Of a stretch of 64,000 nt of DNA, positions 7,708-35,687 are shown piece after piece. Every line of letters begins with the position of its first letter. The first letter of the stretch is position 1. The stretch lies in IMG/VR virus record IMGVR_UViG_3300035696_000002, one strand, 5' to 3'. The notes under the pieces are model-generated. The model was not told the DNA's origin. It saw only the letters and a program-made list of their open reading frames with translations, and searched no databases. The position numbers and the translations under genes were made by a program. The stretch is from a virus (lineage: Duplodnaviria > Heunggongvirae > Uroviricota > Caudoviricetes).

Positions 7708-7750
7708 AGACCATGAACCCCCTCTACGGCAGAAGTCTGAAGACCATGAA
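7701..7750 (+). repeat. 17-nt direct repeat agtctgaagaccatgaa, two copies 33 nt apart, each ending in an in-frame ATG of the downstream gene
   Basis: Seen directly in the sequence at 7701-7717 and 7734-7750. Confidence 0.6.
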
Positions 7751-17540: not shown

Positions 17541-17677
17541 TGGGCAAGCTGGACAAATTCGAGAAAGGGGTCATCATCTTCCTGATGGCCCTTTTGTTTC
17601 TTACGATCTTCAAGGGTTGCGAAGTGAAGGTCAATATCGACTCCAAACCCTCACCCGCAGTGAAAAGCCAGTATTAA
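17540..17677 (+). CDS. small membrane protein (45 aa)
   Basis: MGKLDKFEKGVIIFLMALLFLTIFKGCEV...; TAATG overlap. Confidence 0.35.
   Translation: MGKLDKFEKGVIIFLMALLFLTIFKGCEVKVNIDSKPSPAVKSQY
17662..17676 (+). promoter_or_regulatory. conserved motif GAAAAGCCAGTATTA (core CCAGTATTA), 5 nt before ATG 17681
   Basis: A 15/15 identity with site 23584-23598; the motif overlaps the 3' ends of unrelated upstream genes, so the match is not protein homology. Confidence 0.45.
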
Positions 17678-17680
17678 ACA

Positions 17681-17782
17681 ATGACTGAACTGAACAAAGT
17701 GCCGGGGACGTGCCCATGGAAGCGAAATGGGTATCCCTGTCCTTACGAAAAGAATGGGTACCCGTGTCCGTATGAACGATGA
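17681..17782 (+). CDS. possible 33-aa Cys/Pro repeat peptide (MTELNKVPGTCPWKR-NGYPCPYEK-NGYPCPYER)
   Basis: Short ORF encoded across a 2x27-nt tandem DNA repeat, directly after the conserved motif; coding status is uncertain. Confidence 0.25.
   Translation: MTELNKVPGTCPWKRNGYPCPYEKNGYPCPYER
17726..17779 (+). repeat. tandem direct repeat, 2 x 27 nt (aatgggtatccctgtccttacgaaaag / aatgggtacccgtgtccgtatgaacga)
   Basis: Seen directly; about 21 of 27 positions are identical. Confidence 0.6.
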
Positions 17783-18341
17783 AGACATCAAGTATCGCAA
17801 GTGCCAAGTGTCCGGTTGCGACTATCGGGAACTGCGTGGCACCCGCATGGGCGACTTCATTGAGGGCGAGTTCGTCTGCCCGGCTCACGCCTTGGCATAC
17901 GTGCTGGAGCATCCAACAGGTTTAGACGCAGGATTTAGACAGGGAGGAAGTATGAAGTTGTTTACGCTGAAAGGCAAGAACAAAACCAAGGCTCAGGTGG
18001 TGAGCAAGACGCCAGAGAAGACCACAGCGGATACGTATGAAGGCAAGACGATCACGATCACTGTCATCGGAAACAAGTCCTACGGTATCTCAGTAGACGG
18101 GCAGGAGGCGGGTTACGCGGTCGGCGATCTGGTCGTCAATGTCAATGGGCCTGTGGACACTGTCGAAACCCTCAGTGGGAACGTCAACGTAGCGGGTGAT
18201 GTCAAGAATATCGAGACCACAAGCGGCAGCGTCGAGTGCGATGATGTCAGCGGTGACATTCAGACGGTGAGCGGCAGTGTAGCATGTGCCAAGGTTAGCG
18301 GCGACATCGACACTGTGTCCGGCAGCGTCATAGTGCGGTGA
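17772..18341 (+). CDS. beta-helical repeat protein (bactofilin/adhesin-like SG-D/N-V...TVSGSV repeats)
   Basis: Track ORF 17727..18341 (start at 17727 or 17772); C-terminal VSGDIQTVSGSV-type repeats. Confidence 0.55.
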   Translation: MNDEDIKYRKCQVSGCDYRELRGTRMGDFIEGEFVCPAHALAYVLEHPTGLDAGFRQGGSMKLFTLKGKNKTKAQVVSKTPEKTTADTYEGKTITITVIGNKSYGISVDGQEAGYAVGDLVVNVNGPVDTVETLSGNVNVAGDVKNIETTSGSVECDDVSGDIQTVSGSVACAKVSGDIDTVSGSVIVR

Positions 18342-18392
18342 GCAGCAAAGCAGAGCGGAAGATGGTCGAAATGATCGCCCGCAAGAGGAAGC

Positions 18393-19094
18393 ATGGAAGC
18401 ACAACTGACAACCCGGCTCGCGGCATTTCACAAAGCGGTCGCAGCAACGCAGCAACGCTACGAGTACGAACAGACACAGATCGAAAGGCTCAAAGCAAAG
18501 ATCACCCAACTTGAGGCTGAGAAGACCCAGCTTGTTAAAGCAGTGGCGTTGATTGACCGTGGCATACAGACCATTTCTGCCAACGGTATCGGGCTAATTG
18601 AGTCTGTCGTCACCAAAGGACTTCGAATCGTCTTCGGTGATGACCAGATCGGCCTCGTGATTGAAAAGAAAGAGGGAGCCCGTGGCAGCAGCTATCGTAT
18701 CCTCGTAAAAGACGACGAGAACGTTGGCGACCCCATGAAGTCGAACGGCGGCGGTGTGCAGAACACCGTGGCCTTTTTGCTCCGACTCATTCTTGCCAAG
18801 CGGTTCAAACTTGCAAAGTTGTTGGTGCTCGACGAGCAGTTCAATGGCGTCTCGCCTGATCGTCAGCCATACGTCTCCGAATTACTCCACCAGTTGACCC
18901 ATCAGTTCGGGTATACTATCCTATGCGTCACGCACCAGCCGATTTTGGCCCGGCAGGCTGACGCTGTCTACAGACTTGTGGCCAAGACGAAGCCCCCGGC
19001 ACTTTGTAAGCTGGAGGGTGCTGAACTGGCAGAGTTCAAGAAGGGGCTTGATGGAACCGCTACAGAAGATAGTCAAGCTGAAGTCGCTCAGTGA
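18393..19094 (+). CDS. ABC/SMC-type ATPase C-terminal half (SbcC/Rad50/RecN-like), with no Walker A
   Basis: N-terminal coiled coil; signature-like SNGGGVQ, Walker B LLVLDEQ, D-loop SPD, H-loop CVTHQP; no P-loop anywhere in the ORF. Confidence 0.55.
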   Translation: MEAQLTTRLAAFHKAVAATQQRYEYEQTQIERLKAKITQLEAEKTQLVKAVALIDRGIQTISANGIGLIESVVTKGLRIVFGDDQIGLVIEKKEGARGSSYRILVKDDENVGDPMKSNGGGVQNTVAFLLRLILAKRFKLAKLLVLDEQFNGVSPDRQPYVSELLHQLTHQFGYTILCVTHQPILARQADAVYRLVAKTKPPALCKLEGAELAEFKKGLDGTATEDSQAEVAQ

Positions 19095-19626
19095 GATCAT
19101 TGAGCGGGCTCGCGATCTCATCCGCCGCCATCGTCGTCGCTTCCTAAAGCGTAATCTGCGGCCCTGTCCTTACAACTGCAAACTGGCTGATATGATGGGA
19201 CACAAGGTTATTGGTTGCTCCACGTGTGGGAGCACCGACCCCGATCAGTGTAAGCAGGCAAACAAATTCGTTCCGATGTTCACGAAGGAAGAACTGGCAA
19301 AGCAGTTCGCCGACTCCCTCCGCGATCCTCAAGTGCTTCTGCGAGACTATCGGGACTTGACCGTGTTTCTGTGGATACTGGGCGGGTTCGACCAACAGGT
19401 AGACGAGCATATTGTCTCGGGAATGGAGAGTAATGACACTGGAAAACGCAACGAAGGTGCTGAAGTTCTACAAGATAATTCTGGGAATAGGGCTGCTGGC
19501 GTTCGTGATGTGGGTGAACATGACGCAGGCCCGGACAATCGAGCAACAACGCACGGAGCTTCGATCCCAATTACAGACGACAACCGAGGCAACGTTAAAA
19601 CTCGGGGCGTGTCAGGCAAAGCTTAA
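19051..19626 (+). CDS. hypothetical Cys-rich protein; the 3' third is probably not coding in this frame
   Basis: ATG inside track ORF 18976..19626; GC3 is high up to about 19430 and then collapses where the ORF overlaps the membrane-protein gene below. Confidence 0.3.
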   Translation: MEPLQKIVKLKSLSEIIERARDLIRRHRRRFLKRNLRPCPYNCKLADMMGHKVIGCSTCGSTDPDQCKQANKFVPMFTKEELAKQFADSLRDPQVLLRDYRDLTVFLWILGGFDQQVDEHIVSGMESNDTGKRNEGAEVLQDNSGNRAAGVRDVGEHDAGPDNRATTHGASIPITDDNRGNVKTRGVSGKA

Positions 19627-19639
19627 CGAAAAGAAATGA
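19433..19639 (+). CDS. small membrane protein with a coiled-coil tail (holin/spanin-like topology)
   Basis: ATG inside track ORF 19412..19639; high GC3 in this frame; TM helix ILGIGLLAFVMWV. Confidence 0.5.
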   Translation: MTLENATKVLKFYKIILGIGLLAFVMWVNMTQARTIEQQRTELRSQLQTTTEATLKLGACQAKLNEKK

Positions 19640-19908
19640 ACCTTCATGAGTGCATACCGCCATCCCTGTGCTGGGGTATAGAGGCTGTTGAAGCCCACAC
19701 TACAGCCCCAGTTTACTGTCCGTATGATGGGCTCAGGATGACGGAGAAGTTTCGTGACGCCCGCAGTGACGAAGGACTGCAAGTACGTTTACTGATTTGT
19801 CCCCAGTGTGGCCACGAAATATTTCAAATGTATACGGATGAAGAGTTTGCTGATCCCAAGGATAACGCGAATTGTAGGTGTAAGGGATGTCGAAATCTTC
19901 AGAGATAA
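19636..19908 (+). CDS. zinc-ribbon protein
   Basis: CPYDG...CPQCGHE...CRCKGC. Confidence 0.5.
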   Translation: MNLHECIPPSLCWGIEAVEAHTTAPVYCPYDGLRMTEKFRDARSDEGLQVRLLICPQCGHEIFQMYTDEEFADPKDNANCRCKGCRNLQR

Positions 19909-20726
19909 GCGTTGCCAATCTCATCAAGGATGTTGATACTTGGTACGCCAATCTCCCCATCACCGATCCACAGATTGTTGAAAAGGCAAACGTGGCGGGT
20001 AGGGCGTGGGACAAGATTGGCGTCACCCGAGATCGCATCATTGCTGTGCGGGGCTGGAAGCCAGCACTGCCTTTGATTGAGAAAAATTTTGATTCGCTTC
20101 TCCGCGAGTTGGGTATTTTCTATTGCCCCAAGAAAGTCAGGGAAGTCGGCCCGGCATTCGTATTCCCTTTGCGGGATTACAAAGGGACGATCAACTACGC
20201 CCAGACAAAGCCACTTGAGGGAAGCCCGCTGTCTGGGGACGGCAAATTCAAGTATCACTACATTGGCGAGGAGCCGAAAGGGCCGCGTTGGTTCGGTAAT
20301 ACACCGGAGATGTTGCAGAAAGTGGTCAATTCCAGCCTGTTGATCGTGGTGGAAGGCCCTTTCGATTTGCTTGCAGCCCGGCTTGTTGCTCCTATAGCCC
20401 CCATCATGTCCCCGCTCACCAAGACTTTGGGCAAGGAGCATATTGCTTTTATCCGCATGCTGGGTATTAAGAAGCTGATCCTGCTCTACGACAACGAGAA
20501 GCCGGATTTGGCCAAGGGCAAGAAGCTGGGGGCGGGCAATGCGGCTGCCAAGATTCAGGTCAAAGAAGTGCAGGAGGCCTGTGAGGGCCGGGTTTCAGTG
20601 GAATCCATGACATGCCCGGCAAGTGACCCCAGCAAGGCGTTGGAGAACTTTGAGGACGCAGAGCAACTGAAGCTTCTCTTGAGAAAGTTCAACGTAGTTC
20701 CTACGACGGTGGATGACGATGAGTGA
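19887..20726 (+). CDS. Toprim-domain protein (DnaG-primase-like catalytic core)
   Basis: LLIVVEGPFDLLAARL (conserved Glu) and KLILLYDNEKPD acidic motif, in Toprim order. Confidence 0.55.
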   Translation: MSKSSEISVANLIKDVDTWYANLPITDPQIVEKANVAGRAWDKIGVTRDRIIAVRGWKPALPLIEKNFDSLLRELGIFYCPKKVREVGPAFVFPLRDYKGTINYAQTKPLEGSPLSGDGKFKYHYIGEEPKGPRWFGNTPEMLQKVVNSSLLIVVEGPFDLLAARLVAPIAPIMSPLTKTLGKEHIAFIRMLGIKKLILLYDNEKPDLAKGKKLGAGNAAAKIQVKEVQEACEGRVSVESMTCPASDPSKALENFEDAEQLKLLLRKFNVVPTTVDDDE

Positions 20727-21057
20727 TTTCGATCTGATATTGGCGATCAACACGGAGATCAAGAACGACCCCAAGTCCCCCGTTTTCGATCAAAAATTCG
20801 ATCCGCTTGACGAGATCGCCGTGGAAATTGTACTATTAGAAGCCGACCATCTGGTCGATAGCTACATGGAGCAGTACCGCATCAGGTATCGTGACAAGTT
20901 CACTGACCCTGCCAAGTACGACGCCCTCGAAGAAGAATATCGACTGAAGCTGCGATCAGGTATTAGGGAGTCCGTCGCGTTCGCACGCGAGGCTATTAAG
21001 GACTACTACGTACCAGACCCGAGTGAAGACGAGCCGGATGACGACGGAGGGGTATGA
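20713..21057 (+). CDS. hypothetical acidic protein
   Basis: Track ORF. Confidence 0.55.
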   Translation: MTMSDFDLILAINTEIKNDPKSPVFDQKFDPLDEIAVEIVLLEADHLVDSYMEQYRIRYRDKFTDPAKYDALEEEYRLKLRSGIRESVAFAREAIKDYYVPDPSEDEPDDDGGV

Positions 21058-21242
21058 AAGTTCCGAAGAAAGCAAAGCCAACACAACGTGAGAATTTCAC
21101 CGATCATGATGCACGACTGCTCGATGAGATTCGCAGGGAATTGGATAAGCTCGTTGATGGACTTATCAGTGTTGGGCCGGGCGGGATTAAACTCCTGTTC
21201 GAGCAAGCTGTATCGACTGTGGTTCTCAGGAGAACGAAATGA
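21054..21242 (+). CDS. hypothetical protein
   Basis: Track ORF. Confidence 0.45.
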   Translation: MKVPKKAKPTQRENFTDHDARLLDEIRRELDKLVDGLISVGPGGIKLLFEQAVSTVVLRRTK

Positions 21243-21583
21243 AGGCAGCAGTGCGGCGGGTTAAGACCCGCACCAAAGAACGTCCGAATGCTAAGCTCCG
21301 CAAGGCCGGGGCTGTACAGTTCAGGGAACTTGAGAAAGACCTCGTAGAGGGCAAGACGAACGTCGTTGTCCTCGATTTAACCGGGCATCCGAAGCCCGTC
21401 ACGGCCCACATCATTGCGGGCACCGTCGATGAGCGAGCCATGGCCCGCCGTGAACGTCTGAGCAAGCTGGAGAAAGCGATCAGGAAGGTTGTCGAGGAGT
21501 ACGACATCGAAGGCGAGATTACCAAGGTCGCATTCATCCTCGGCGAAGAAGACGAGACTGCTCCTTTCGAGGTCAAGGTATAG
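21239..21583 (+). CDS. hypothetical protein
   Basis: Track ORF. Confidence 0.55.
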   Translation: MKAAVRRVKTRTKERPNAKLRKAGAVQFRELEKDLVEGKTNVVVLDLTGHPKPVTAHIIAGTVDERAMARRERLSKLEKAIRKVVEEYDIEGEITKVAFILGEEDETAPFEVKV

Positions 21584-21585
21584 CT

Positions 21586-21756
21586 ATGAACTGGGGTTCA
21601 AACTACGGAACGTGCAAACTGTGCAAATGCGGCGAACGAATGAAACAGCATGCTATGCTTTCGGGGATCGGCACCGCTCCACTTAATCGGCAAAGCTGTG
21701 AACGTCGCCGCTGGTGGAATTTCTGGAAACACGATCCAGACTGCCGTATTAGCTGA
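21586..21756 (+). CDS. small Cys-rich protein (56 aa)
   Basis: MNWGSNYGTCKLCKCGERMKQHAMLSGIGTAPLNRQSCERRRWW...; fills the gap; TGATG overlap. Confidence 0.35.
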   Translation: MNWGSNYGTCKLCKCGERMKQHAMLSGIGTAPLNRQSCERRRWWNFWKHDPDCRIS

Positions 21757-21995
21757 TGGCACGACCAGTCTGCCAAGCCGCACTCCTCGGCGGAGAACAG
21801 CCGATGGTTTCGTATGCCCCACCCTTGCAACCGTTGTTCAAGTGGAAAGAGTACTGTGGGCGTCCTGCGGTGGATTATCAGTTGATGGATGGCATCAAGT
21901 ACTGGCTGTGTGCCGAACATTGGGACATGGCGAATGAGGATCGAGAACACACCTGTATCAACGGGTACGGTGTAGTGAGCGATCTAGTGAGGTGA
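21756..21995 (+). CDS. ZnF-array family paralog (dispersed copy)
   Basis: ...EYCGRPAVDYQLMDGIKYWLCAEHWDMANED. Confidence 0.6.
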   Translation: MARPVCQAALLGGEQPMVSYAPPLQPLFKWKEYCGRPAVDYQLMDGIKYWLCAEHWDMANEDREHTCINGYGVVSDLVR

Positions 21996-21998
21996 AAT

Positions 21999-23267
21999 AT
22001 GGGCGTTGATACACACAAGGTTGAAGTAGTACCAATCAAGCTGGAGCCACATCCCGACCCGGAGACTACCTCCCTGTCGATTGTGAAGGTCTACAACTTT
22101 CAGGTCGTAGTCCGCACAGCGGATTGGCTTGGGGTGGAGAAGGCAGCGTATGTCCAGCCGGACAGCGTCATGCCTGACACGCCGGAGTATCGCTGGCTGA
22201 AGGATACGGGCACGACCCGCACGATGCGGAAGACCCTCGAAGAACAGAAGGCCGCAGGCACGATCACGCCTGAGGAGTATGAGCAGCAGTCTGCCCTCAT
22301 TGAGGAGCGTATCGACAAGAACACGAAGCGTCTTCGCGTAACGGTGATGAAGCTCCGTGGTGTGCTCTCCATGGGCATGTTGCTCCCGGCCCCGGAAGGT
22401 GCTGAGATCGGCGATGATGTTGCCGAGCGTCTGGGCATCACTCACTACGAGCCGCCAATCGAGGAATATCTTGAGCCCGGCAAGAAGCCGAAGCATCAGG
22501 GCGAGGACGTTGCTCCGCCGCCCTCGATGATCTATGCCCCGGAGTACGACGTGGAATCTGTCTACAAGTATGCTTCCGCGTTCGAGGCTGGTGAAATGGT
22601 CGTTGTGACCGAAAAGATCGACGGTCAGAACGCCCGCTTTGTGGCGATGCCGCGTCAGCCCAAGACTTTCATCGTTGCACCGGACACTATCCCGGTGGAC
22701 GAGGTCATGCAGCTTCGTGCTCACATCGACGAGTGCGGGCCATGCGGGGAAGGTGCTGCTCCGGCCATCGACTACGAGAGTCCAGTGTTCAAGTACGAGA
22801 TTCACGCTGGCTCCCGCAAGGAATGGAAGATGGAACTGGGCGGCTCCAACTGGTGGAGGGTTCAGAAGCAGGTTCCATGGATCGTGGAGTGGCTGTACGC
22901 CAACCCGGAGAAGGTTCTCTACGGGGAGACCTACGGCTGGGTTGCACCTTTGCGTTACGGTGCGACTGTGCCCGGCACCCTGTACTTCCGTGCGTTCGAC
23001 ATCCTCGAAGGCATGGAATGGATGGATGCCGAGAAGTTCATCACGGTCTTGCCTGAGACCCAGCGTGTCCCGCTCCTCGGCGTCATGCCGTTTGATTTCG
23101 AGAAGCTTCAGAAGCTCGCTGAAGGGCCGTCCCTTGTGCCGGGTGCCAAGCACATGCGGGAAGGCATCGTCATCAAGCCTGTGAAGGAACGCAAGCACTA
23201 CCGTCTGGGCCGCGTCATGGTCAAGATGGTCAGTAACAAGTACCTCGAAGAGCAGGGAAAGCGATAA
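21999..23267 (+). CDS. ATP-dependent RNA/DNA ligase-like nucleotidyltransferase
   Basis: Motif I KIDGQN (lysine nucleotidyltransferase KxDG), later EGIVIKP (motif IV/V-like). Confidence 0.55.
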   Translation: MGVDTHKVEVVPIKLEPHPDPETTSLSIVKVYNFQVVVRTADWLGVEKAAYVQPDSVMPDTPEYRWLKDTGTTRTMRKTLEEQKAAGTITPEEYEQQSALIEERIDKNTKRLRVTVMKLRGVLSMGMLLPAPEGAEIGDDVAERLGITHYEPPIEEYLEPGKKPKHQGEDVAPPPSMIYAPEYDVESVYKYASAFEAGEMVVVTEKIDGQNARFVAMPRQPKTFIVAPDTIPVDEVMQLRAHIDECGPCGEGAAPAIDYESPVFKYEIHAGSRKEWKMELGGSNWWRVQKQVPWIVEWLYANPEKVLYGETYGWVAPLRYGATVPGTLYFRAFDILEGMEWMDAEKFITVLPETQRVPLLGVMPFDFEKLQKLAEGPSLVPGAKHMREGIVIKPVKERKHYRLGRVMVKMVSNKYLEEQGKR

Positions 23268-23268
23268 C

Positions 23269-23604
23269 ATGCTCGATCAACCACCCGGCTGGGTAATGGT
23301 GCTCATCTTCTTTTTGATGGTGGGCACCGGAGCCGCCGTTGTTGCAATGGCGGTGACCTTCCTCGTCTTCTTGGTGCAAGGCATCAAGAACTCAGGGAAA
23401 TCGGATGAGGATGACTCTGGCGGCGGCTGGGGCGGCAGTGGTGGTTGGACGAATGAGCCAATCGGGCCTCCTCCGGGCGGCGGTGGTGGAGGCGGACTCG
23501 ACCCCGACATGGTTGAGTTTCATACTGAGTTAGACTTGATCGGGAAGACGATTCATATTCCTGTGGAGTCTCACGAGGAGCACGAAAAGCCAGTATTACA
23601 GTAA
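23269..23604 (+). CDS. membrane protein with a Gly-rich low-complexity segment
   Basis: Track ORF; N-terminal TM helix; GGGWGGSGGW...GGGGGGG. Confidence 0.5.
   Translation: MLDQPPGWVMVLIFFLMVGTGAAVVAMAVTFLVFLVQGIKNSGKSDEDDSGGGWGGSGGWTNEPIGPPPGGGGGGGLDPDMVEFHTELDLIGKTIHIPVESHEEHEKPVLQ
23584..23598 (+). promoter_or_regulatory. conserved motif GAAAAGCCAGTATTA, 21 nt before ATG 23619
   Basis: Identical 15-mer to 17662-17676. Confidence 0.45.
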
Positions 23605-23618
23605 GAGGATCAAGAATT

Positions 23619-23903
23619 ATGGGCGGTAAATTACGCAGCACCGAGATTACGCTGTTGGGCAGTGGCCCATTCGATGAACCAGAGCGGGAACAGGAAGTCG
23701 AGGGCAACAAGTTTCAAGGGGTTCAGTTCCAACTAACTCTCGACATGCTTCGGCGTCTTGGGGCAGAGATCATCAAAGGCGAATTCACAACTGAGCAGGC
23801 AAAGGCTTTCGTCCTGCTCCATGGCCAAGAATTTCAGGCCAAGCTGAACTCACAAGCAAAGCTTTTCATTCGAGAGAAGCTGGGTAAGTTGGGGTCACTC
23901 TAA
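23619..23903 (+). CDS. hypothetical protein
   Basis: Track ORF. Confidence 0.5.
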   Translation: MGGKLRSTEITLLGSGPFDEPEREQEVEGNKFQGVQFQLTLDMLRRLGAEIIKGEFTTEQAKAFVLLHGQEFQAKLNSQAKLFIREKLGKLGSL

Positions 23904-24229
23904 TGCCAAGAGAAATCGGTACCCGCATTGGAGCCGTCTCGCATTCTGACAAAGATACCATTTACATCTTTGGCTTTGGCACCTACGCTGGGGATGAAGT
24001 TCCAGAAACCGCAGGCGGCTGGATGGCGGAAGGGTTGCGTGAATACAACATCCCGAATCCCAAATTGGTTCTCGACAGCGGCAAGGTAGTCTGGGGCTGC
24101 GAGTGTTGGTGGGGCTCAGAGGAACGGGTGCGTAAGGAACTCGAAGGCCGCACGGTAGTTGAAATTGATATCGACGAAGCACGGAGGGCTGCCAGTGAGG
24201 GACAGGAACAAACACAAACTGACAATTGA
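23903..24229 (+). CDS. hypothetical protein
   Basis: Track ORF. Confidence 0.5.
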   Translation: MPREIGTRIGAVSHSDKDTIYIFGFGTYAGDEVPETAGGWMAEGLREYNIPNPKLVLDSGKVVWGCECWWGSEERVRKELEGRTVVEIDIDEARRAASEGQEQTQTDN

Positions 24230-24833
24230 GATCGACAACCTGACGGAAGCTCAGGTCATTGCCCTCAACGATTTACTTGCTACGTGGGTGCAGCTTGGGA
24301 GTTGGGGCTCCTCGCGTGACACCACTTTCTTTGCTGACGGCGACGGCGATTTCCAGCCCAAAATTCTAGTGAACGGGGAAAAGCCTAAGCTCACGAATCT
24401 ACTCCCCCGCGACCAATTTTGGAAGAGCGGACACCATGGCGATTACCGCATTGACTACGACTGGATCGGATGGAAACTGGCGGCAATCGAGGAGGCTGAG
24501 AACTCCTGTACAAAGGCTCAGCCCGACCGCACCAAGAAGTACCACGACTTCCCCCGCAACAGGGATGCTGAGACTCCGTGTGACAACGGTTGTGGGTTGC
24601 TTTGGAAAGAGACCCCATACTACTCTGCCCCGGTGGACTGGACAATCACACCCCACATGCCCGCGTGTGCAGAAGGCGGCACGAGTTGCACATATTGCGG
24701 CAAGGCCTATAATGACACAATCCATGTCAGCGGCCCCCTTGAGAAAGCAGAGTCCGCCCAACTCTCCCAAGCGTCTGACAAAGAGTATCCGTCACGACTG
24801 ATGCCCGGCCAGTTTCCAGACGGAACTTATTGA
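24159..24833 (+). CDS. hypothetical Cys-rich protein (224 aa)
   Basis: Track ORF; start uncertain (a GTG near 24195 is an alternative). Confidence 0.5.
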   Translation: MKLISTKHGGLPVRDRNKHKLTIEIDNLTEAQVIALNDLLATWVQLGSWGSSRDTTFFADGDGDFQPKILVNGEKPKLTNLLPRDQFWKSGHHGDYRIDYDWIGWKLAAIEEAENSCTKAQPDRTKKYHDFPRNRDAETPCDNGCGLLWKETPYYSAPVDWTITPHMPACAEGGTSCTYCGKAYNDTIHVSGPLEKAESAQLSQASDKEYPSRLMPGQFPDGTY

Positions 24834-24840
24834 GCACAGC

Positions 24841-27795: not shown

Positions 27796-27797
27796 TA

Positions 27798-28163: not shown

Positions 28164-28936
28164 AGAAGGGTTTTACACGAATCAGAGTATTGGTGGATCG
28201 TTCGGGCTCCATGAAGAGGATCGCAGCGGCCACTGTTTCAGGCATCAATGAATTCATCACGGCACAGAAGGCTCAGCCGGGTGACGCTGAATTGGACGTA
28301 ATCCAGTTCGACGAAGACGGAGGAAAGCTGACCTACGAAACGATTCTCAAGGGCAACCTGAAGAGCATCGCGACGATCACAGACGAACAGTTCGACCCAC
28401 GCGGTATGACGCCGCTGCACGACGCCATGGGCCGCACGATCAACGAACTTGGAGCCGAGCTTGCCGCTCTGCCTGAGTCCGAACGCCCGGAGAAGGTCAT
28501 TGTGACCTTCGTTACGGACGGTCTTGAGAACGCCAGCAAGGAATTCAAGGCTGACCAGATCAAGGCAATGGTTGAGCACCAGACAAGCAAGTACAACTGG
28601 AGCTTTTCCTACGTCGGGGCCAATCAGGATGCTGTCCTCGTCGGCCAAGAACTGGGCTTCTCTCCGCTGCGTTGCATGTCGTTCACATCCGACTCAGTGC
28701 ACACGAAGAGTGCTTTCTCCGCCGTTGCGGCCTATGCCAGCAGCGTGCGTAGTGCAGACCTCCACGATGTGCAGAAGATGGGCTACACCGATGCAGATCG
28801 TGCGTCCAGCTTGGACGAAAACGATCCGGTCGCACAGGGCGTGAGCAGCAATAACGCAACCAAAATCCCGTTCGTGCCTAAGAGTCGCGGGCCGATCAAG
28901 ACGGGCATTCCATTCGTTCCAAAGGACAACCAATAA
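28160..28936 (+). CDS. von Willebrand factor A (vWA) domain protein
   Basis: MIDAS-like DRSGSM near the N-terminus; a later TFVTDGLEN segment follows in the usual vWA order. Confidence 0.6.
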   Translation: MKKGFTRIRVLVDRSGSMKRIAAATVSGINEFITAQKAQPGDAELDVIQFDEDGGKLTYETILKGNLKSIATITDEQFDPRGMTPLHDAMGRTINELGAELAALPESERPEKVIVTFVTDGLENASKEFKADQIKAMVEHQTSKYNWSFSYVGANQDAVLVGQELGFSPLRCMSFTSDSVHTKSAFSAVAAYASSVRSADLHDVQKMGYTDADRASSLDENDPVAQGVSSNNATKIPFVPKSRGPIKTGIPFVPKDNQ

Positions 28937-28937
28937 C

Positions 28938-29387
28938 ATGTTCCCGCTTCTCGACGTTGACACCATCGTTATGAAAGACACAGCGACCGTTCTGTTGGGT
29001 CGTTCAAACCGAGGAATCACTGCCGGGAAGTGGGTCATTCCGGGCGGGCAGATCGGCGGCTTCGAGTCCATCAAGGACGCCTCTGCCCGTACCATTTTGC
29101 AGAAGACGGGCGTGGTCATCAAAGAGCAACGTCTGCTCTTCGTTTCAGAAACAGTCAACAAGGAAGGCAACGATCACCGTGTCATCCTGTACTGCCTCGG
29201 CAACTATTCAGGCGGTATGCTCACAGCAGGTGAAGGCCTCTCCGAAGTCCGATGGGTTGACGTGCGTGACCTCGGCAATTATCAAGATGAAGGCATGGGC
29301 GAGATGTCGGTCAGTGCTTTCGCCAAGTTCGCGGAGTGGGTTCGTGCAATGGCTCCTTCCATGGCACGCTCTGGTACGATCAACTAA
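28938..29387 (+). CDS. NUDIX-family hydrolase (divergent Nudix box)
   Basis: GKWVIPGGQIGGFESIKDASARTILQKTG resembles GX5EX7REUXEEXGU with substitutions. Confidence 0.5.
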   Translation: MFPLLDVDTIVMKDTATVLLGRSNRGITAGKWVIPGGQIGGFESIKDASARTILQKTGVVIKEQRLLFVSETVNKEGNDHRVILYCLGNYSGGMLTAGEGLSEVRWVDVRDLGNYQDEGMGEMSVSAFAKFAEWVRAMAPSMARSGTIN

Positions 29388-29404
29388 TCACACGGAGAAA
29401 TAGT

Positions 29405-29878
29405 ATGAGTCGTGAAGTTCGCAGGGTTCCCCCTAACTGGGAACACCCGAAAGAGGAGAAGTACGATTTCTTTCGGCGGACAACTGAGGAACGATATAAG
29501 CCACTGCATGACGGCTACAAAAGGGCTCTGGCTGATTTTGCCGAAAAGATTAAGACTGACGGCCTTGAAGAAGCGATTGACTGGTACGGCGGCGGGCCGA
29601 AAAAGGAAGACTACATGCCGGACTGGCCAGCCGGGGAGCGTACCCATTACCAGATGTATGAGACATGCTCCGAGGGAACACCGATCAGCCCAGTATTCGC
29701 GACCCCCGAAGCGTTAGCCCACTGGCTGGCTGATACTGGGGCCTCATCCTTTGCCGATAGAACGGCGACGTATGAGCAATGGCTTCGCGTGTGCAAGGGC
29801 GGCTGGGCCGTTTCCGCAGTTATGGTGCCCGGCAAAGGAATCGTCTCTGGCGTCGAAGGTCTCTCAGATACCGAATAA
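29405..29878 (+). CDS. hypothetical protein
   Basis: Internal ATG of track ORF 29336..29878. Confidence 0.55.
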   Translation: MSREVRRVPPNWEHPKEEKYDFFRRTTEERYKPLHDGYKRALADFAEKIKTDGLEEAIDWYGGGPKKEDYMPDWPAGERTHYQMYETCSEGTPISPVFATPEALAHWLADTGASSFADRTATYEQWLRVCKGGWAVSAVMVPGKGIVSGVEGLSDTE

Positions 29879-29879
29879 T

Positions 29880-29888
29880 CCAGTATTA
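29880..29888 (+). promoter_or_regulatory. conserved motif CCAGTATTA, 8 nt before ATG 29896
   Basis: taaTCCAGTATTAAcc, immediately after the upstream stop. Confidence 0.4.
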
Positions 29889-29895
29889 ACCTTGC

Positions 29896-30180
29896 ATGAA
29901 GGTACCCAAGAACCCCTACGCCCGGTTTGCGTTCTTCTACGCATCTGAGCTATTCTCGTTTTTCTTCATCGCCTCAAACTTCCGTGCACTGGCGAAGGGC
30001 CTGTACTTTTGGACAGCCGTCACGGACATGACCTTGGTATTCCAAGGCATGCTCATCACGAAGCTCATGATCGAAGACGAGAAGTCACGGGACTGGGTTT
30101 CTATCATTGCCTTCACTGTCGGCGGGGCCTGCGGGTCTCTGTTATCAATCTGGGTGACAAAGCACCTGTTCGGGAGTTAA
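29896..30180 (+). CDS. membrane protein (3 TM)
   Basis: Track ORF. Confidence 0.5.
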   Translation: MKVPKNPYARFAFFYASELFSFFFIASNFRALAKGLYFWTAVTDMTLVFQGMLITKLMIEDEKSRDWVSIIAFTVGGACGSLLSIWVTKHLFGS

Positions 30181-30190
30181 GATAGGTCTA

Positions 30191-31255
30191 ATGAGTCTTG
30201 TTTCCCAACGTCCGTGTAACTGGTCTGAGATCGTCGGTCAGAACCGAGCCATCGAGATCATCAAGGCAGCCATCTCCCACCCCGAATTTCTCAATCGTGG
30301 ATTCATTCTCAAAGGCCCCACAGGCGTGGGCAAGACCATCACCGCAATCGTCATGGCCCGTGCCCTGATGTGCACCGGAGGCGATCCGTTGGGTTGCGGC
30401 ACATGCGACTCCTGTAATCTCCGAACCCACAACTTGCTTGAAGTGGATGGTGCTCAGTATGGCGGGCACAGCCGGGTAAAGGAACTGATCGACTTCGCTG
30501 CGGTTGCCCCAATAGACAGTAAGCGGCGTGTGGTGATTGTGAATGCCGCACACCTACTCACGAAGGATGCTTGGTCAGTCTTTCAGCGGCCTCTTGAAGC
30601 ACCAGCCAACGCTTCTGTATTCATCTTCGTTTCAAGTCAGGGGGATGAGATCGAGCACTCGATTCGTTCCCGCTGTTGCGTTGTCGAATTCCATCCGGTA
30701 GCCGCTGACAAGATGCTGGGTACCCTGTCAAATCTGGCATCGAACAACAACATCACGTACAAGCTGGAAGCCTTACAGTACATCGCCCACGCAGCGAAGG
30801 GGATTGTTCGTGACGCTGTCCAATGGCTCGATACAGCCGCCACGCTGGGGGAAGTGACAGTTGAGAACGTTCGAGGTGTGGTGGACAATTCACTGGAAGA
30901 TTTGTGCAAAAAATTTCTACTGTCCGTTGCGTCCCGCGATATGACTCTGTCTGTAAAATTAGCAGATGAAATTGGAATCAAGACCACGCCGGGGAAGGCC
31001 ATCGAAATGATGCTCTCGGTTTATGGTAGGTCGGTGTTTGGTGGGGAAGAACTGCGAAACATTTACCTCGGCCTGCCCGCCGTTGGGGACGTGACCAACA
31101 TCCTCATCAAGTGGAGCCACGCACCACACGGATTGCCTTCGGATGCTCTTCCGCTGCTCGCATTCGAGCTTTTGACCACCAAGAAGGGTGCGATCCCCAA
31201 GCCAGCCCCGGCCCCTGTTCCTGAGGCCAAAGCAGCCTCCGTACTGGACGACTAA
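30191..31255 (+). CDS. DnaX-like (DNA pol III tau/gamma-like) AAA+ clamp-loader subunit with a zinc module
   Basis: Walker A GPTGVGKT, then CTGGDPLGCGTCDSC (zinc module as in DnaX); the Walker B position reads VVIVNAAHLL, not hhhDEXH. Confidence 0.6.
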   Translation: MSLVSQRPCNWSEIVGQNRAIEIIKAAISHPEFLNRGFILKGPTGVGKTITAIVMARALMCTGGDPLGCGTCDSCNLRTHNLLEVDGAQYGGHSRVKELIDFAAVAPIDSKRRVVIVNAAHLLTKDAWSVFQRPLEAPANASVFIFVSSQGDEIEHSIRSRCCVVEFHPVAADKMLGTLSNLASNNNITYKLEALQYIAHAAKGIVRDAVQWLDTAATLGEVTVENVRGVVDNSLEDLCKKFLLSVASRDMTLSVKLADEIGIKTTPGKAIEMMLSVYGRSVFGGEELRNIYLGLPAVGDVTNILIKWSHAPHGLPSDALPLLAFELLTTKKGAIPKPAPAPVPEAKAASVLDD

Positions 31256-32155
31256 ATGGATTTGATTGTCGAGACAGATATCGGGCGAGACCCGGACGAT
31301 TTCTTTGCCATCTGCTACCTCGTAGCTGCTGGCATCAACATTCGAGCCATCACCATTTCACCGGGCGATCAGGATCAGGTTGCTGTCGCCAAGTTTCTCT
31401 GCACTCAGTTGGGCCTGAACATCCCAGTGGGCGTGGCCGATGTCAACCGTCAGAAATCGAGTGTAGGTGGAATGCACACCGCCATGCTCAAAAAATACGG
31501 CTTCACCTTACGGCATCCATCAGATGGGCAGGGCTGGGCAGTTATCCGGGATACGATGGAGAGCTACCCGGATAGCGAATTGTTCATCATCGGGCCTCCG
31601 CAGAGTGTTGGTGCATATCTGGAAGGGCCGTGGGTAGTGCACCGTCCGTTCTACCAGATTTGGATGCAAGGTGGTTTCGTGGGCTATGATGTCCATCAAC
31701 ACCCAGTGAAAGTCAGGCTGCCCAAGTTCGAAGGCAAACGCAGTGTAGGCACGTTCAACATGAACGGTGATGTAGTCGGCACGCAGCGTATTCTTGCTTT
31801 GCCCGGCGTTGCCCGCCACTTCATTGGGAAGAATGTGTGCCACACGATTGAGTATGACCGAGCCCGGCACGCCAAGGTGACAGCAGTGCCGCCGCAAAAT
31901 CGGGCCATGGAACTTCTGCACGAAGGCATGACGATGTATTTGGCGAAGCATGACAAGAAATTGTTCCACGATCCCGCAGCCGCCGTCTGTATGCTGCACC
32001 CGGAGATCGGGACGTGGATCAATGGAACACTGTTTCGTGAGGGCTCCGGCTGGGGTACCGAATACGTTCCGCCACGGACGCCGGGGAAGACCGACCAAAT
32101 GCTCGTGGACATCGACTATGATAGACTATGGCAGCATGTAACTGAGGGATCATGA
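31256..32155 (+). CDS. inosine-uridine-preferring nucleoside hydrolase (IU-NH) family protein
   Basis: N-terminal ETDIGRDPDD matches the IU-NH DxDxxxDD motif. Confidence 0.6.
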   Translation: MDLIVETDIGRDPDDFFAICYLVAAGINIRAITISPGDQDQVAVAKFLCTQLGLNIPVGVADVNRQKSSVGGMHTAMLKKYGFTLRHPSDGQGWAVIRDTMESYPDSELFIIGPPQSVGAYLEGPWVVHRPFYQIWMQGGFVGYDVHQHPVKVRLPKFEGKRSVGTFNMNGDVVGTQRILALPGVARHFIGKNVCHTIEYDRARHAKVTAVPPQNRAMELLHEGMTMYLAKHDKKLFHDPAAAVCMLHPEIGTWINGTLFREGSGWGTEYVPPRTPGKTDQMLVDIDYDRLWQHVTEGS

Positions 32156-32985
32156 GACACAGCGACCTGTTCGATTTCATCAAAGAACGTCATGCGATCT
32201 ATACCCGGCGTCAGCAGGGCATCAAGAAGCCATGGACGTATGACCACATCCTTCAGAATTACCGTTTCTGCAACGTGTATCGCGAACTCGATACTGTGAC
32301 GCAGTGGATCGCTAAGAACTGGCGTGATCCGAACACCAACGATAACAACGTGTGGTTCGCCATGGCAGTCGCCCGTCTCGTCAATTGGCCGGACACCATG
32401 GAAGCTCTTGGCTATCCCGTGCCGTGGAATCCGAAACATTTCATAACAACATTGGCAGGCTTGAAGATGGCAGGAGCAAAAGTCTTCACGGGGGCCTACA
32501 TGATTCCTGCCGATGCAAGATACACATCAAAGGCGGAGTCCATCGCTACCGCAGTGCTCACCCCGATGTGGGAGAAACGGAATTACATCTACGAGGCGAC
32601 TGACTGTCTCGCCCACTTCCATCACCGCTTGATGAAGTTCAACGGTATGGGCAGTTTCCTTGCCGGGCAGGTCGTATGCGATGCCAAGTACACGACGCTG
32701 CTTAGAGACGCCTCGGACTGGGAGACGTGGGCGTGTTCCGGCCCCGGCAGCCGTCGCGGACTCAATCGAGTCGCGGGTCGCCCGGTCAACGCACCATGGA
32801 AAGAGAGTGACTGGTTTAAGACCCTGACGGAACTCAAGCAGGTCATCGACATTCTGGTTGTGGACGCAAACATGCCAGCCATTCATGCACAGGATTTGCA
32901 GAACTGCCTGTGTGAATTCGACAAGTACGAACGAGTCAGATTAGGAGAAGGGAAGCCTCGCAGCAGGTACCCCGGAAAGCCATGA
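32152..32985 (+). CDS. hypothetical enzyme-like protein (277 aa), ATGA-coupled to the nucleoside hydrolase
   Basis: Track ORF; conserved-looking YRFCNVYRELD and W/H/D-rich segments; family not recognised. Confidence 0.55.
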   Translation: MRHSDLFDFIKERHAIYTRRQQGIKKPWTYDHILQNYRFCNVYRELDTVTQWIAKNWRDPNTNDNNVWFAMAVARLVNWPDTMEALGYPVPWNPKHFITTLAGLKMAGAKVFTGAYMIPADARYTSKAESIATAVLTPMWEKRNYIYEATDCLAHFHHRLMKFNGMGSFLAGQVVCDAKYTTLLRDASDWETWACSGPGSRRGLNRVAGRPVNAPWKESDWFKTLTELKQVIDILVVDANMPAIHAQDLQNCLCEFDKYERVRLGEGKPRSRYPGKP

Positions 32986-33218
32986 TGAAGGCCACAGACC
33001 GCAAAATTTCGCAGCTACGCCTTGTGATGATTTACCTTGCACAGGAGGGCATCAAAGAGTTCCCGGAAGATGTACGAGTCCTCGCCGATGCCAAATCGCT
33101 GGACGATTTGACTGAACAAGAGGCGGAGACGATCATTCAATCGTGCTACCGCAAGCTACGGCAGCATCTTGGCCTACCCGAGCCGCCCCCTGATCCCCAG
33201 CTTCCGCTTGCAGTTTAA
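32982..33218 (+). CDS. hypothetical protein
   Basis: Track ORF. Confidence 0.5.
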   Translation: MMKATDRKISQLRLVMIYLAQEGIKEFPEDVRVLADAKSLDDLTEQEAETIIQSCYRKLRQHLGLPEPPPDPQLPLAV

Positions 33219-33344
33219 GTACTCCTGCACGTAGCCCTTGTAGTGCACCAGCGACCGAGCGGTGCCCCACTTCCGCTTGCAGCCGAGGATGTATCGGCGA
33301 TAGCACACCATCACGTGTCTCGCTTGTTCTAGCGGGTCTCTCAT
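33174..33344 (-). CDS. small basic protein (56 aa), divergently transcribed; candidate regulator
   Basis: Internal ATG (MRDPLEQARHVMVCYRRYILGCKRKWG...) of track ORF 33174..33455 (-); GC3 is high only downstream of this ATG. Confidence 0.4.
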   Translation of the reverse strand: MRDPLEQARHVMVCYRRYILGCKRKWGTARSLVHYKGYVQEYLNCKRKLGIRGRLG

Positions 33345-33509
33345 TTCTTCCCCTTGTTCCAGTATGGAGTTTTGCATCCGGCACAACGGACGGGGGTGAG
33401 TGTTTGCCAAACCCCGTCCACGAGGTTCAAGTCGGGGCACCATGTGTGCCCGCACCGATCACAGGTGCATTCCTTGGCCTCGACGGCTATGGTTCTGATC
33501 GCCATTTTG

Positions 33510-33531
33510 AACTTAAGTGTACACTCAAGTT
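33510..33531. promoter_or_regulatory. imperfect 22-bp palindrome aacttaagtGTACACtcaagtt (operator-like) in the divergent intergenic region
   Basis: Seen directly; ACTTAAGT and GTGTACAC are each perfect palindromes; the region is AT-enriched. Confidence 0.45.
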
Positions 33532-33548
33532 ACAGTTTTGTCAAAATC

Positions 33549-33557
33549 CCAGTATTA
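33549..33557 (+). promoter_or_regulatory. conserved motif CCAGTATTA, 7 nt before ATG 33564
   Basis: aaaatcCCAGTATTAcat; a possible -35 element (ttacag) lies 17 nt upstream of TATTAC. Confidence 0.4.
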
Positions 33558-33563
33558 CATAGC

Positions 33564-34916
33564 ATGATTCTGGAATACGGCCCGATTGAGAAACTTCAAG
33601 GCCTCCCATGGTACATGGTTGAGGTTCGATCCGAAAAGACTATTGAATCCACGATGCGTCGCGTTGGGAACGCCCTCCACGGTATCTTTCGGGACGAACC
33701 CATCGAGATATTCATCCCGGTTGTGCGTCGCGATTTGGACGTTTTTGAGTTGTCCACACAAGTGTACTGCTTTGTTCGCGGCACCAGCACTGGCTTCCCG
33801 GCTCTGTTGCGGCTTAAGAGCGTGACTGGAATCGTGGGCCTAGTCACCGAAGGCGACACCAACAGGCCCTCCAAGGCTCTTCAATGGCCCGACGCGGACG
33901 TTCAGAAACTCATCTCTGACGCCGAGGAGGAGCATCGTAAGCGTGCCATGGGCATTGAGGTTGGCAGCTTCGTTCGCATCTTGAATGGCGAGACCCGAGA
34001 CTACTGTGGCGTCGTGGAGATCATCGGCGACGGCAAGGCTGTCGTAAGAATCACCCTCCGCACCAAGTCGATTCTGCTTGAGACCCCGATTCGCAACTTG
34101 CTAAACCTTGGTGAAGTCGCCCCAGAGCGGCGAGTCTATTACTACGGCCCACTCGTAGACCAGCTAATCAAAGACAACCCTGAAGACGGCCCCAAGCTGA
34201 TTGAGGAAGACCTCCACCTCGACGAACCCACACCTCAGATCGAGGTGCTGGATGAGCCGCTGCCGGAGCATGAGCCCAAGAAGCATTCCCGCCAGCGTAC
34301 TGTCACGGCCCTTGTGAAGAAGCTCGTCATGCTGGAGAACAAGACCAACCCCATGGAAATCGCCAAGGTGGTTGTCGAGTCTTTGAAGAGAGGCGACATC
34401 AAGGCACCAAAGAACCTCTTTATCGTCTACTGCATCATCAAGGATCATCTCATGCGAGAGCACTTCCGCAAGCTCGATCCGACGATTAAGAACTACCGTG
34501 AAGTGATCCACAAGTACGGCAAGGAGTTCAAGTTCTCGGCCCAACAGATCGCAGCCCTTGATCCGGCCCTCGGCATCCCTGTGCAGTCTGCGGATTCTGA
34601 GGAGGATGAGCCGATAGTCGAAGAGCCGACTATAGAAATCCCTATTGAACAGCCGAAAAAGTCACGCAAGAAGAAGGCTGAGGCTGCCGCTGCTGAGGTC
34701 AAAAAGATAGAGAAGCCCGGCAAGAAGATTCACAAAAAGCAGCGGAAAGCAAGTACTGACACGTGCGGCGAATGCTATCACCCACGCAGCGAACACAACA
34801 AAACTGCGAAGGGCAACTGGGCTCGCTGCAAGGGTAAGACAAATCCCAAGCTGCACCCGTGGATCGAAGGCGTAAAGCCGTGCTGGTGCAAGCGGTTCAA
34901 AGAGAAGGCGAAATAG
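33564..34916 (+). CDS. NusG-like transcription factor paralog (NGN-like region plus KOW), with a long Lys/Cys-rich C-terminal extension
   Basis: KOW motif GSFVRILNGETRDYCGVVEIIGDGKAVVRITL; start taken at the ATG after the non-coding leader of track ORF 33354..34916. Confidence 0.55.
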   Translation: MILEYGPIEKLQGLPWYMVEVRSEKTIESTMRRVGNALHGIFRDEPIEIFIPVVRRDLDVFELSTQVYCFVRGTSTGFPALLRLKSVTGIVGLVTEGDTNRPSKALQWPDADVQKLISDAEEEHRKRAMGIEVGSFVRILNGETRDYCGVVEIIGDGKAVVRITLRTKSILLETPIRNLLNLGEVAPERRVYYYGPLVDQLIKDNPEDGPKLIEEDLHLDEPTPQIEVLDEPLPEHEPKKHSRQRTVTALVKKLVMLENKTNPMEIAKVVVESLKRGDIKAPKNLFIVYCIIKDHLMREHFRKLDPTIKNYREVIHKYGKEFKFSAQQIAALDPALGIPVQSADSEEDEPIVEEPTIEIPIEQPKKSRKKKAEAAAAEVKKIEKPGKKIHKKQRKASTDTCGECYHPRSEHNKTAKGNWARCKGKTNPKLHPWIEGVKPCWCKRFKEKAK

Positions 34917-34917
34917 T

Positions 34918-35664
34918 ATGGCAACAGCACCCGTCACAGGTTCAACTCCCGGACTTATCCGCACATGGCTGCTCGACCATGAACGGATCGTTATCATCCT
35001 CATCCTTGCTGGCGTGTTCTGGTGGGGCTATGGCAAGTACGCCGACATCCGGCTTCAGCATGACAACGCGGCCCTCGCACAACAGAAGCTCATTACTGAC
35101 GCACAGGTGAAGGCAAACCAACAGTTGGCCCAACAGGTCGCCGATGACGCGGCTCAGATGAAGGCCTTGTCCGATAAGGTTGAAGCCCAGAATCAACAGT
35201 TGGCGAACGCTAACATTGCATTGGCGACGGCTTTGTCAAAGCAGCAGAAAACTGACGCCAGCTTGCCGCCGACCGATTTGGCCCTACGCTGGGATCAGCT
35301 TGTACCGTCCATGCCCGCAGGTGGGGTCACGGTTGCCCAGAATGGCACCATGACAGTCACGCAGGCCGGGGCCGTTGGTACAGTTCAGCAGCTTGAGAAA
35401 GTTCCTGTATTGACTACTGAGTTGGCCAACGAAACAACAGAGAAGCAGAACGACGATCAGCTTCTCGTTTCCGCGAACAAGAGTATCTTCGACCTCAACA
35501 ACCAAGTCGCCGGAGCCACGAAACTCGATGCAGACCATCAACAACAGTGCACCGAGCAGATCAAAGTTGTAAAGGACGAAGCCCGCAAATCCAAGCGTCG
35601 CTGGTTCATCATCGGCTACGTTGCTGGATTCTTGTCCCGTCAATTTATTGGAAAGGGCCTGTAA
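34918..35664 (+). CDS. membrane protein with a long periplasmic coiled coil
   Basis: N-terminal TM, Q/A-rich heptads, C-terminal hydrophobic segment. Confidence 0.55.
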   Translation: MATAPVTGSTPGLIRTWLLDHERIVIILILAGVFWWGYGKYADIRLQHDNAALAQQKLITDAQVKANQQLAQQVADDAAQMKALSDKVEAQNQQLANANIALATALSKQQKTDASLPPTDLALRWDQLVPSMPAGGVTVAQNGTMTVTQAGAVGTVQQLEKVPVLTTELANETTEKQNDDQLLVSANKSIFDLNNQVAGATKLDADHQQQCTEQIKVVKDEARKSKRRWFIIGYVAGFLSRQFIGKGL

Positions 35665-35678
35665 TTTTTCAGGCAAAT

Positions 35679-35687
35679 GCAGTATTA
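35679..35687 (+). promoter_or_regulatory. variant motif GCAGTATTA, 18 nt before ATG 35705
   Basis: atGCAGTATTActtagcaggagatcaccATG. Confidence 0.35.

Follow-up and report, generated by a model that had tools for sequence, protein, structure and literature searches.

The window, a stretch of 64,000 nt from the virus record IMGVR_UViG_3300035696_000002, contains a short recurrent motif, (C/G)RGTATTA, that lies just upstream of genes. The motif is read here, with a probability of about three in four, as the core, similar to a −10 element, of promoters that work without a −35 in this megaphage and in its relatives, which are jumbo and mega phages of Acidobacteriota. It is very probably a transcriptional, phage-specific promoter element. 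The window is part of a 463-kb metagenome contig of an uncultivated soil phage, of which 84 kb were readable (the window and 10 kb on each side). Genes were called by our own heuristic (n = 105 in the window), and the calls were compared with those of the collection over 16–33 kb.

Occurrence of the motif in the window and in related phages

The motif is real and non-random, and chance is excluded as its origin. The exact 9-mer CCAGTATTA, with the core GTATTA, is present in four copies against 0.11 expected under an order-3 Markov model, and is absent from the opposite strand. The 15-mer with up to three mismatches has five matches against 0.59 expected, a number reached in none of 100 shuffles. 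In the 50 nt 5′ of the 105 called genes, compared with the whole window, the top k-mers are GTATTA, AGTATTA, and CAGTATTA (k = 6, 7, and 8), and GTATTA words outrank Shine–Dalgarno-like words. Counting both strands, six of the eight AGTATTA copies lie within 60 nt 5′ of a same-strand start. Because only about 5% of strand-positions qualify, this placement is far from chance. An exact 15-mer scan of IMG/VR returned scattered lone chance matches, with a second copy in no contig.

A preliminary description of this DNA reported five copies between 17662 and 35687, and all five are found there (copies 1–5, Table 1), on the + strand and with the sequences it gave. Its view that conservation acts at the DNA level is borne out: the spans overlap or abut the ends of the open reading frames (ORFs) 17540–17677, 23269–23604, and 29405–29878 in three different frames. 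The related word that it noted, CCAGTGTTA, lies at 46629 inside a near-consensus TTGACA-17-TACTAT promoter. Its statement that an ATG soon follows each site holds for copies 2–5, with distances from the motif end of 20, 7, 6, and 17 nt. This detail needs correction at copy 1, where the ATG at 17681, 4 nt on, opens an ORF of only 33 codons and the first called gene, 17727–18341, starts 50 nt past the motif. A variant copy and a copy in the left flank were found in addition. All seven copies are on the coding strand, 5′ of genes.

Copies 3 and 4 show a leaderless layout, with no Shine–Dalgarno sequence. Genes for a clamp loader, a nucleoside hydrolase, and a 5-hmdU DNA kinase lie downstream of copy 3, and copy 4 is located in a divergent intergenic region of 58 nt. 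The copy left of the window is within a 490-nt divergent region and heads a leftward array of about 33 small genes.

Relatives of the window phage were collected without use of the motif, through the similarity of their proteins to the product of the gene behind copy 4. They comprise three viral contigs, 20 metagenome contigs, and one contig of 431 kb (L147). The relatives are syntenic with the window and share about 35–70% amino-acid identity with it over the compared genes. RGTATTW is retained at three orthologous positions, with diverged flanks. At the copy-4 ortholog, it lies exactly 6 nt before the ATG, with no Shine–Dalgarno sequence, in 13 of the 18 distinct upstream sequences from relatives, and about 40 nt upstream in two further relatives. 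The copy-5 ortholog is preceded in six relatives by GCAGTATTW, TAGTATTT, or CCGGTATTA, followed by a Shine–Dalgarno sequence after 0–10 nt. On the 3′ side of the RNA ligase gene, the ortholog of the copy-2 gene is preceded in the relatives by TAGTATTA or GCAGTATTA; counterparts of copy 2 are TAGTATTAggagacaggATG (L002), GCAGTATTActggagagaATG (L004), and CCCAGTATTAcagtagagagga (L147). New, non-orthologous examples of the motif are also present. When copy-4 orthologs are excluded, a start codon in leaderless or Shine–Dalgarno layout follows 19 of 75 RGTATTW copies in the relatives, against 34 of 930 composition-matched control words. The near-identical contigs L005 and L006 show 0 single-nucleotide polymorphisms. 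A megablast search of INPHARED with 20 kb gave no match, and no close deposited phage was found there.

In 34 aligned sites, information is confined to A(−6) and A(−5) from the core, the C, the purine, and GTATT(A). There is none from −45 to −17, and the base after TATTA is variable. No −35 hexamer of the sigma-70 class is conserved; copy 4 alone has a weak TTACAG at 17 nt (4/6 match), in keeping with the earlier remark that most sites lack a good −35 element.

The two identical 15-mers, 5.9 kb apart, were also considered as direct repeats at the borders of a mobile segment. The synteny of the genes between them in the relatives led to the rejection of this idea.

Table 1. Positions of the motif copies and of the genes they precede (window coordinates unless L027 is given; aa, amino acids).
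Feature	Position	Strand	Context
Variant 15-mer AAAAGTTGAGTATTA (holding GAGTATTA at 10287)	10280..10294	+	16 nt 5′ of start 10311
70-aa gene preceded by the variant copy	10311–10523 (L027 19927–20139)	+	gene call
Copy 1, GAAAAGCCAGTATTA	17662..17676	+	covers stop of 45-aa ORF 17540–17677
Copy 2, GAAAAGCCAGTATTA	23584..23598	+	within final codons of 23269–23604; then cagtaaGAGGAtcaagaattATG, gene 23619–23903
Copy 3, AATAATCCAGTATTA (9-mer CCAGTATTA at 29880–29888)	29874..29888	+	ATG of 29896–30180 after 7 nt
Copy 4, AAAATCCCAGTATTA (9-mer CCAGTATTA at 33549–33557)	33543..33557	+	ATG of NusG-like gene after 6 nt
NusG-like gene served by copy 4	33564..34916	+	450 aa, N-terminal NGN and KOW domains
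Copy 5, GCAAATGCAGTATTA (9-mer GCAGTATTA at 35679–35687)	35673..35687	+	then cttagcAGGAGatcaccATG, gene 35705–36106
Extra copy, CCAGTATTA	L027 8843, ~770 nt left of window	−	in 490-nt divergent region

A genome-wide census in the cultured relative Tunturi_5

Tunturiibacter phage Tunturi_5 is a 309-kb myovirus of an acidobacterium (PMC11924767). Among deposited phages, it alone has a homologue of the gene that follows copy 4. Its complete genome (L149–L155), with 350 coding sequences (CDS), was used for a genome-wide census, as that of a relative and not of the window phage. A scan for enrichment upstream of starts, which the preliminary description had proposed, shows that GTATTA is concentrated there. 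The genome has 64 copies, of which 55 lie outside the called genes, although these genes span 85% of the sequence. GTATTA is the most enriched upstream 6-mer: 36 of its 64 occurrences are no more than 60 nt from a called start (p = 6e-40). The copies match the orientation of gene blocks, and 56 of them fit one two-part consensus, ATAWTC-21 nt-TGGGTATTAG.

At least 15 deposited CDS starts in Tunturi_5 are located exactly 6–7 nt 3′ of a GTATTA copy, including those of gp4, gp47, gp48, gp72, gp94, gp97, gp145, gp170, gp186, gp192, gp207, gp210, gp212, and gp313. In addition, GTATTA lies 15 and 18 nt upstream of the genes for tRNA-Arg and tRNA-Thr. Its placement before tRNA genes favors a signal for transcription rather than translation. 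The promoter reading offered in the preliminary description is well supported by gene position and strand, orthologous conservation, the constant 6–7 nt to an ATG without a Shine–Dalgarno sequence, the variable distance where such a sequence follows, and the copies before tRNA genes.

The window and Tunturi_5 forms of the motif are equated, provisionally, through the shared GTATTA and through intermediate relatives. A search of the window for an ATAWTC box at 21 nt gave a single regex match; copies 1 and 2 carry CAATATC or CATATTC 32 nt upstream.

Further features of the Tunturi_5 genome touch on the motif. Between 248827 and 248875, a GTATTA-6 nt-ATG arrangement at 248839 is in frame with gp303, whose annotated start is at 248875. 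The true start of gp303 may therefore lie 12 codons upstream of the deposited one. Copies embedded in inverted repeats resemble a fused terminator and promoter, for example at record positions 45409, 46446, and 218497. A second, unrelated bipartite consensus, aaaGTCATCTTTgg-N13-tt(T/C)GTAGGTTGAg, occurs in about 20–30 copies 5′ of genes (for example at 18187, 53579, 54777, 66723, 168724, 169046, and 170113), sometimes in tandem with GTATTA; it was not found in the window. The Tunturi_5 paper (PMC11924767) is silent on promoters, sigma factors, and motifs; an earlier description may exist elsewhere.

Proposed mechanism and alternative readings

The element would consist of an A-tract at about −6/−5 from the core, followed by (C/G)(C/N)R-GTATTA. 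Melting of the DNA by RNA polymerase would take place at GTATTA, and transcription would begin about 6–8 nt downstream. At copies 3 and 4, where the ATG is 6–7 nt past the motif, the product would be a leaderless mRNA. At copies 2 and 5, the transcript would begin at or just before the Shine–Dalgarno sequence; a start about 7 nt beyond copy 2 would fall at this sequence. Copy 1 and the copy left of the window would give a longer leader. The polymerase is probably the host core enzyme, as the annotation of the complete Tunturi_5 genome (350 CDS) lists no RNA polymerase gene. Specificity would come from a phage sigma factor or a phage-modified holoenzyme, rather than from the ordinary −35/−10 mode of the host primary sigma.

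Canonical promoters provide an internal reference. Near-consensus sigma-70-type promoters (TTGACA/TGGACA, 17–18 nt, TAnnnT) are found in intergenic positions at 3042(+), 46613(+), 42618(−), 39361(−), and 33544(−). These TTGACA/TAnnnT promoters are a class distinct from the motif and coexist with it in the window. The site at 42618(−) reads TGGACA-18-TATACT-6 nt-ATG, and its orthologs read TATACT-6 nt-GGAGG, which is the same geometry as that of the motif. GTATTA stands where the hexamer would be, whether the layout is leaderless or led by a Shine–Dalgarno sequence. The leaderless layout is seen at copies 3 and 4, in the 13 copy-4 sequences of relatives, and at the 15 or more Tunturi_5 starts. 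The TAnnnT pattern is not found at the motif, since the T(−7) position is occupied by A or C in the window and by G in Tunturi_5.

A third promoter-like pattern, TAGCCA-18 nt-(G)TATACT with an ATG or a Shine–Dalgarno sequence after 6–9 nt, is present in six copies across the lineage: at 60701–60730 (+) in the window and at L001 ~17740, L002 16467(−), L014 18166(−), L017 15478, and L147 20449. Another word, AAATAGTATG, occurs three times (29398, 34911, and 43050, +) against 0.03 expected; it forms the spacer and start codon after a Shine–Dalgarno-like stretch.

The host is probably an acidobacterium, because the ClpP protein of the window (45663–46322, +) is most similar, at 64–68% identity, to ClpP of Acidobacteriota (Ca. 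Sulfotelmatobacter, Acidobacteriaceae) and because the gene behind copy 4 has a homologue in Tunturi_5. The window additionally codes for a protein with a Clp_N domain. The presumed host phylum was represented by chromosomal loci of Acidobacteriota totaling about 1 Mb, with 996 inferred ATG starts (the first start of long ORFs). In these loci, TAnnnT peaks 6–9 nt before the ATG (19, 12, 17, and 13 occurrences against a background of about 6); therefore, leaderless genes with an ordinary −10 exist in Acidobacteriota. GTATTn occurs 0 times at offsets 4–11 before the 996 starts. Its absence there, together with the lack of a −35 element and of T(−7), argues against plain recognition by the host primary sigma. 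In that limited sense only, the motif is phage-specific, as the preliminary description had proposed.

It is nevertheless conceivable, if unlikely, that the host primary sigma alone reads the motif as an ordinary −10 variant of the host type, and that the conservation reflects strong early promoters like those of T4. The motif heads arrays of small, early-looking genes, and both sigma genes of Tunturi_5 lie behind GTATTA, which implies recognition before those sigmas exist. Canonical sites in the window also have CCAG or CCCG before the hexamer (CCAGTATACT at 42598 and CCCGTATACT at 60721). Such a variant would have to act with neither T(−7) nor a −35, to be missing from the −10 position of the host-phylum starts, where TAnnnT peaks, and to stand apart from the canonical class of the same window.

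The motif could also act in RNA, as a processing site or as the target of a translational regulator or ribosome-recruiting factor 5′ of start codons, of which the T4 RegB and RegA targets are examples. It is strand-specific, 6–20 nt before start codons, and at copies 3 and 4 it stands where a Shine–Dalgarno sequence would be expected; copies 1–3 lie in or next to co-oriented upstream ORFs, so that read-through would transcribe them. However, the same element precedes tRNA genes in Tunturi_5, its distance to the Shine–Dalgarno sequence varies from 0 to 10 nt, and canonical TATACT −10 hexamers of these genomes keep the same distance of 6 nt to the ATG. The window sites gave neither a stable nor a common RNA fold, and there was no Rfam match; a structured RNA was therefore rejected. 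An action in RNA is accordingly improbable.

Slightly less credit still is given to an ops-like role, in which a phage NusG-like factor would read the motif on the non-template strand during elongation, as a site of loading or pausing. The phage does encode a NusG-like protein, with copy 4 at the start of its own gene, and every copy of the motif is on the non-template strand. The extra copy to the left of the window has sigma-70-like matches upstream and a long gene array downstream, and operons that depend on RfaH are often without a Shine–Dalgarno sequence. Yet the motif has no similarity to the ops sequence GGCGGTAGCGTG, and an elongation signal has no reason to keep an exact 6-nt spacing to the ATG at many unrelated genes (at least 15 in Tunturi_5). 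The Tunturi_5 element is moreover bipartite and promoter-like, with a fixed 21-nt spacer, and the 58-nt region at copy 4 offers no other promoter candidate, save hexamers that include the motif.

Several points weigh against the −35-independent promoter class. The conserved TATTAN has no T(−7), which is normally needed for −10 recognition by the sigma-70 family. The upstream half of the element differs between a proximal A-tract with CCAG in the window and a distal ATAWTC with TGG in Tunturi_5. About 10 of the 56 Tunturi_5 copies sit in the loop of long inverted repeats (stems of 8–14 bp), some with a T-run after them, which a simple promoter model leaves unexplained. Two sigma-70-like matches precede the copy left of the window, which may there lie in a transcribed leader. 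Orthologous copies are not independent events, so counts over relatives overstate the number of observations, and the census comes from Tunturi_5, the window phage having been read over 84 of its 463 kb. Finally, the transcription start sites are predicted positions, and the protein that would read the motif is a candidate only.

Candidates for this protein come from Tunturi_5, which has two annotated sigma factors, gp211 (Sigma70_r2 and r4_2) and gp3 (no Pfam match). Both genes lie downstream of GTATTA copies (3048 and 153223), which favors recognition by machinery that is present before the sigmas are made. A model of a gp3 homologue gave weak Foldseek matches (best E = 0.06), nearly all of them to sigma factors. 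A gp3-like ORF is present in L147 (E = 1e-11 to the family profile); it is a shorter homologue, located about 5 kb downstream of the NusG-like gene. It was the only one found in searches of the clade's contigs; those that carry the close relatives of the window yielded no homologue of gp3 or gp211, and no sigma or gp3-like gene was found in the 84 kb of the window phage. Among the 105 window ORFs, neither Pfam nor the best 25 listed PHROG/NCBIfam families indicated a sigma factor or an RNA polymerase, and there is no DxDGD motif. One possible scheme, put forward tentatively, is that GTATTA is read without T(−7) by the host core polymerase with a divergent phage sigma of the gp3 family, possibly on DNA with hypermodified thymidine, to give a largely leaderless transcriptome in Acidobacteriota.

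The modification in this scheme relates to a gene block at 31256–32985 (+), in which a nucleoside hydrolase-like gene is followed by a 5-hmdU DNA kinase gene (PF18723, E = 9e-49; 32152–32985). The block suggests that the phage hypermodifies thymidine in its DNA. If so, the modification could affect recognition of a T-rich promoter word.

Genes served and comparison with known promoters

Recognizable genes of the window encode an RNA ligase, a DnaX-like clamp loader, a nucleoside hydrolase, a 5-hmdU DNA kinase, a NUDIX protein, and ClpP. The motif serves small genes of no known function, the block for the clamp loader and nucleotide metabolism, and the NusG-like factor. In Tunturi_5 it serves mainly genes for replication, recombination, and nucleotide metabolism, together with tRNAs; the large structural blocks contain few copies and are not among the genes served. 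The right-hand 28 kb of the window has no copy. The genes served are thus more likely early or middle than late, and the earlier suggestion of a late promoter is not sustained. The alternative suggestion of an extended −10 fares no better: TG at −15/−14 is missing, and TATTA is preceded by CCAG, GCAG, or TGGG, with the G abutting the T.

The NusG-like protein has a helical middle part and a lysine-rich tail that is also rich in Cys and His, and its top Foldseek matches are all NusG or RfaH. The family comprises more than 230 proteins on phage contigs of up to 463 kb, many of them named NusG by JGI, and includes gp25 of Tunturi_5, annotated as a transcription antiterminator. In the divergent control region upstream of the gene (33506–33563), a 22-nt near-palindrome, AACTTAAGTGTACACTCAAGTT (33510–33531), lies just 5′ of copy 4. 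It overlaps the minus-strand TTGACA-17-TACACT promoter of a zinc-ribbon ORF of 54 residues (33341–33505, −). Relatives have other palindromes at this position (CCCnnnnnnGGG repeats, or CTGAAnTCAG twice), which suggests that the palindromes are lineage-specific operators.

Other features flank the motif copies or lie apart from them. A terminator-like hairpin (17564–17595) is immediately 5′ of copy 1. A gene for a 184-residue Phage_integrase-domain protein (L027 9214–9768, about 400–950 nt left of the window) marks the divergence of the leftward and rightward small-gene arrays. Strand-specific repeats occur among tiny ORFs at 4698–9830 (+), namely TGTGCTGAGCA (six copies), AGCACTGGGA (five), and TGGCTCTGTG (five); they could reflect either small genes that are paralogs or a regulatory unit present several times. 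The minus-strand block 48958–60571 includes proteins of 1670 and 971 residues, which have no sequence match in Pfam or PDB and no PHROG match among the best 25 of 34 families listed.

Acidobacteriota are a dominant soil phylum, and to our knowledge nothing is known of the transcription signals of their phages or of the 300–460 kb relatives. The motif yields a map of predicted promoters. By this map, leaderless mRNAs would be widespread and at least one annotated start would be corrected, and the approximately 56 uses of the motif core in Tunturi_5 make the predictions testable in a cultivable phage–host pair.

The closest parallel in form is provided by the early promoters of jumbo phages (phiKZ; AR9, AAATATATATTAT-(6N)-G(+1)), which are read by virion RNA polymerases and were found by over-representation upstream of operons (PMC7598289, PMC5312081). 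Like the motif, they have a conserved A/T-rich word of about 10–13 nt near −10 and no −35; their start point is 6 nt away, and the TATTA-N6 layout of AR9 resembles CCAGTATTA-N6-A here. Unlike in phiKZ and AR9, multisubunit phage polymerases with split β/β′ subunits are undetected in the 105 window proteins and unannotated in Tunturi_5. The middle and late promoters of Thermus phage P23-45 are extended −10 elements without a −35 and are used after gp39 displaces sigma region 4 (PMC3950348). They likewise form a −35-less class alongside −35/−10 promoters, and the switch between them is a modified host holoenzyme. The P23-45 elements have TG and a normal −10, whereas the motif has CCAG or TGG upstream, G(−13), and a hexamer without T(−7); no gp39-like factor was identified.

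In T4, late promoters carry TATAAATA at −10 and are recognized by gp55 together with gp33 and the sliding clamp. They share with the motif the form of a short, phage-specific, −10-only element without a −35, but differ in sequence and in serving late genes; the genes behind the motif belong to neither the late nor the structural set. Homologues of gp55 and gp33 are absent from the best 25 of the 34 PHROG families listed for the window. The leaderless-mRNA promoters of Actinobacteria and Deinococcus have TANNNT 6–7 nt before the ATG. The motif has the same spacing without a Shine–Dalgarno sequence, with GTATTA/TATTAN instead of TANNNT; the TAnnnT form of this layout is also seen in the Acidobacteriota loci and at 42618(−). 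The RfaH ops element is a short word on the non-template strand upstream of operons. As in that system, the genome encodes a specialized NusG paralogue; in contrast to it, the fixed ATG spacing and the bipartite form in Tunturi_5 suggest a role in initiation rather than elongation. The motif falls outside the sigma-70 −35/−10, TG-extended −10, T4 late, and virion RNA polymerase classes by the features that define them. It is one more phage promoter consensus and not a new kind of element.

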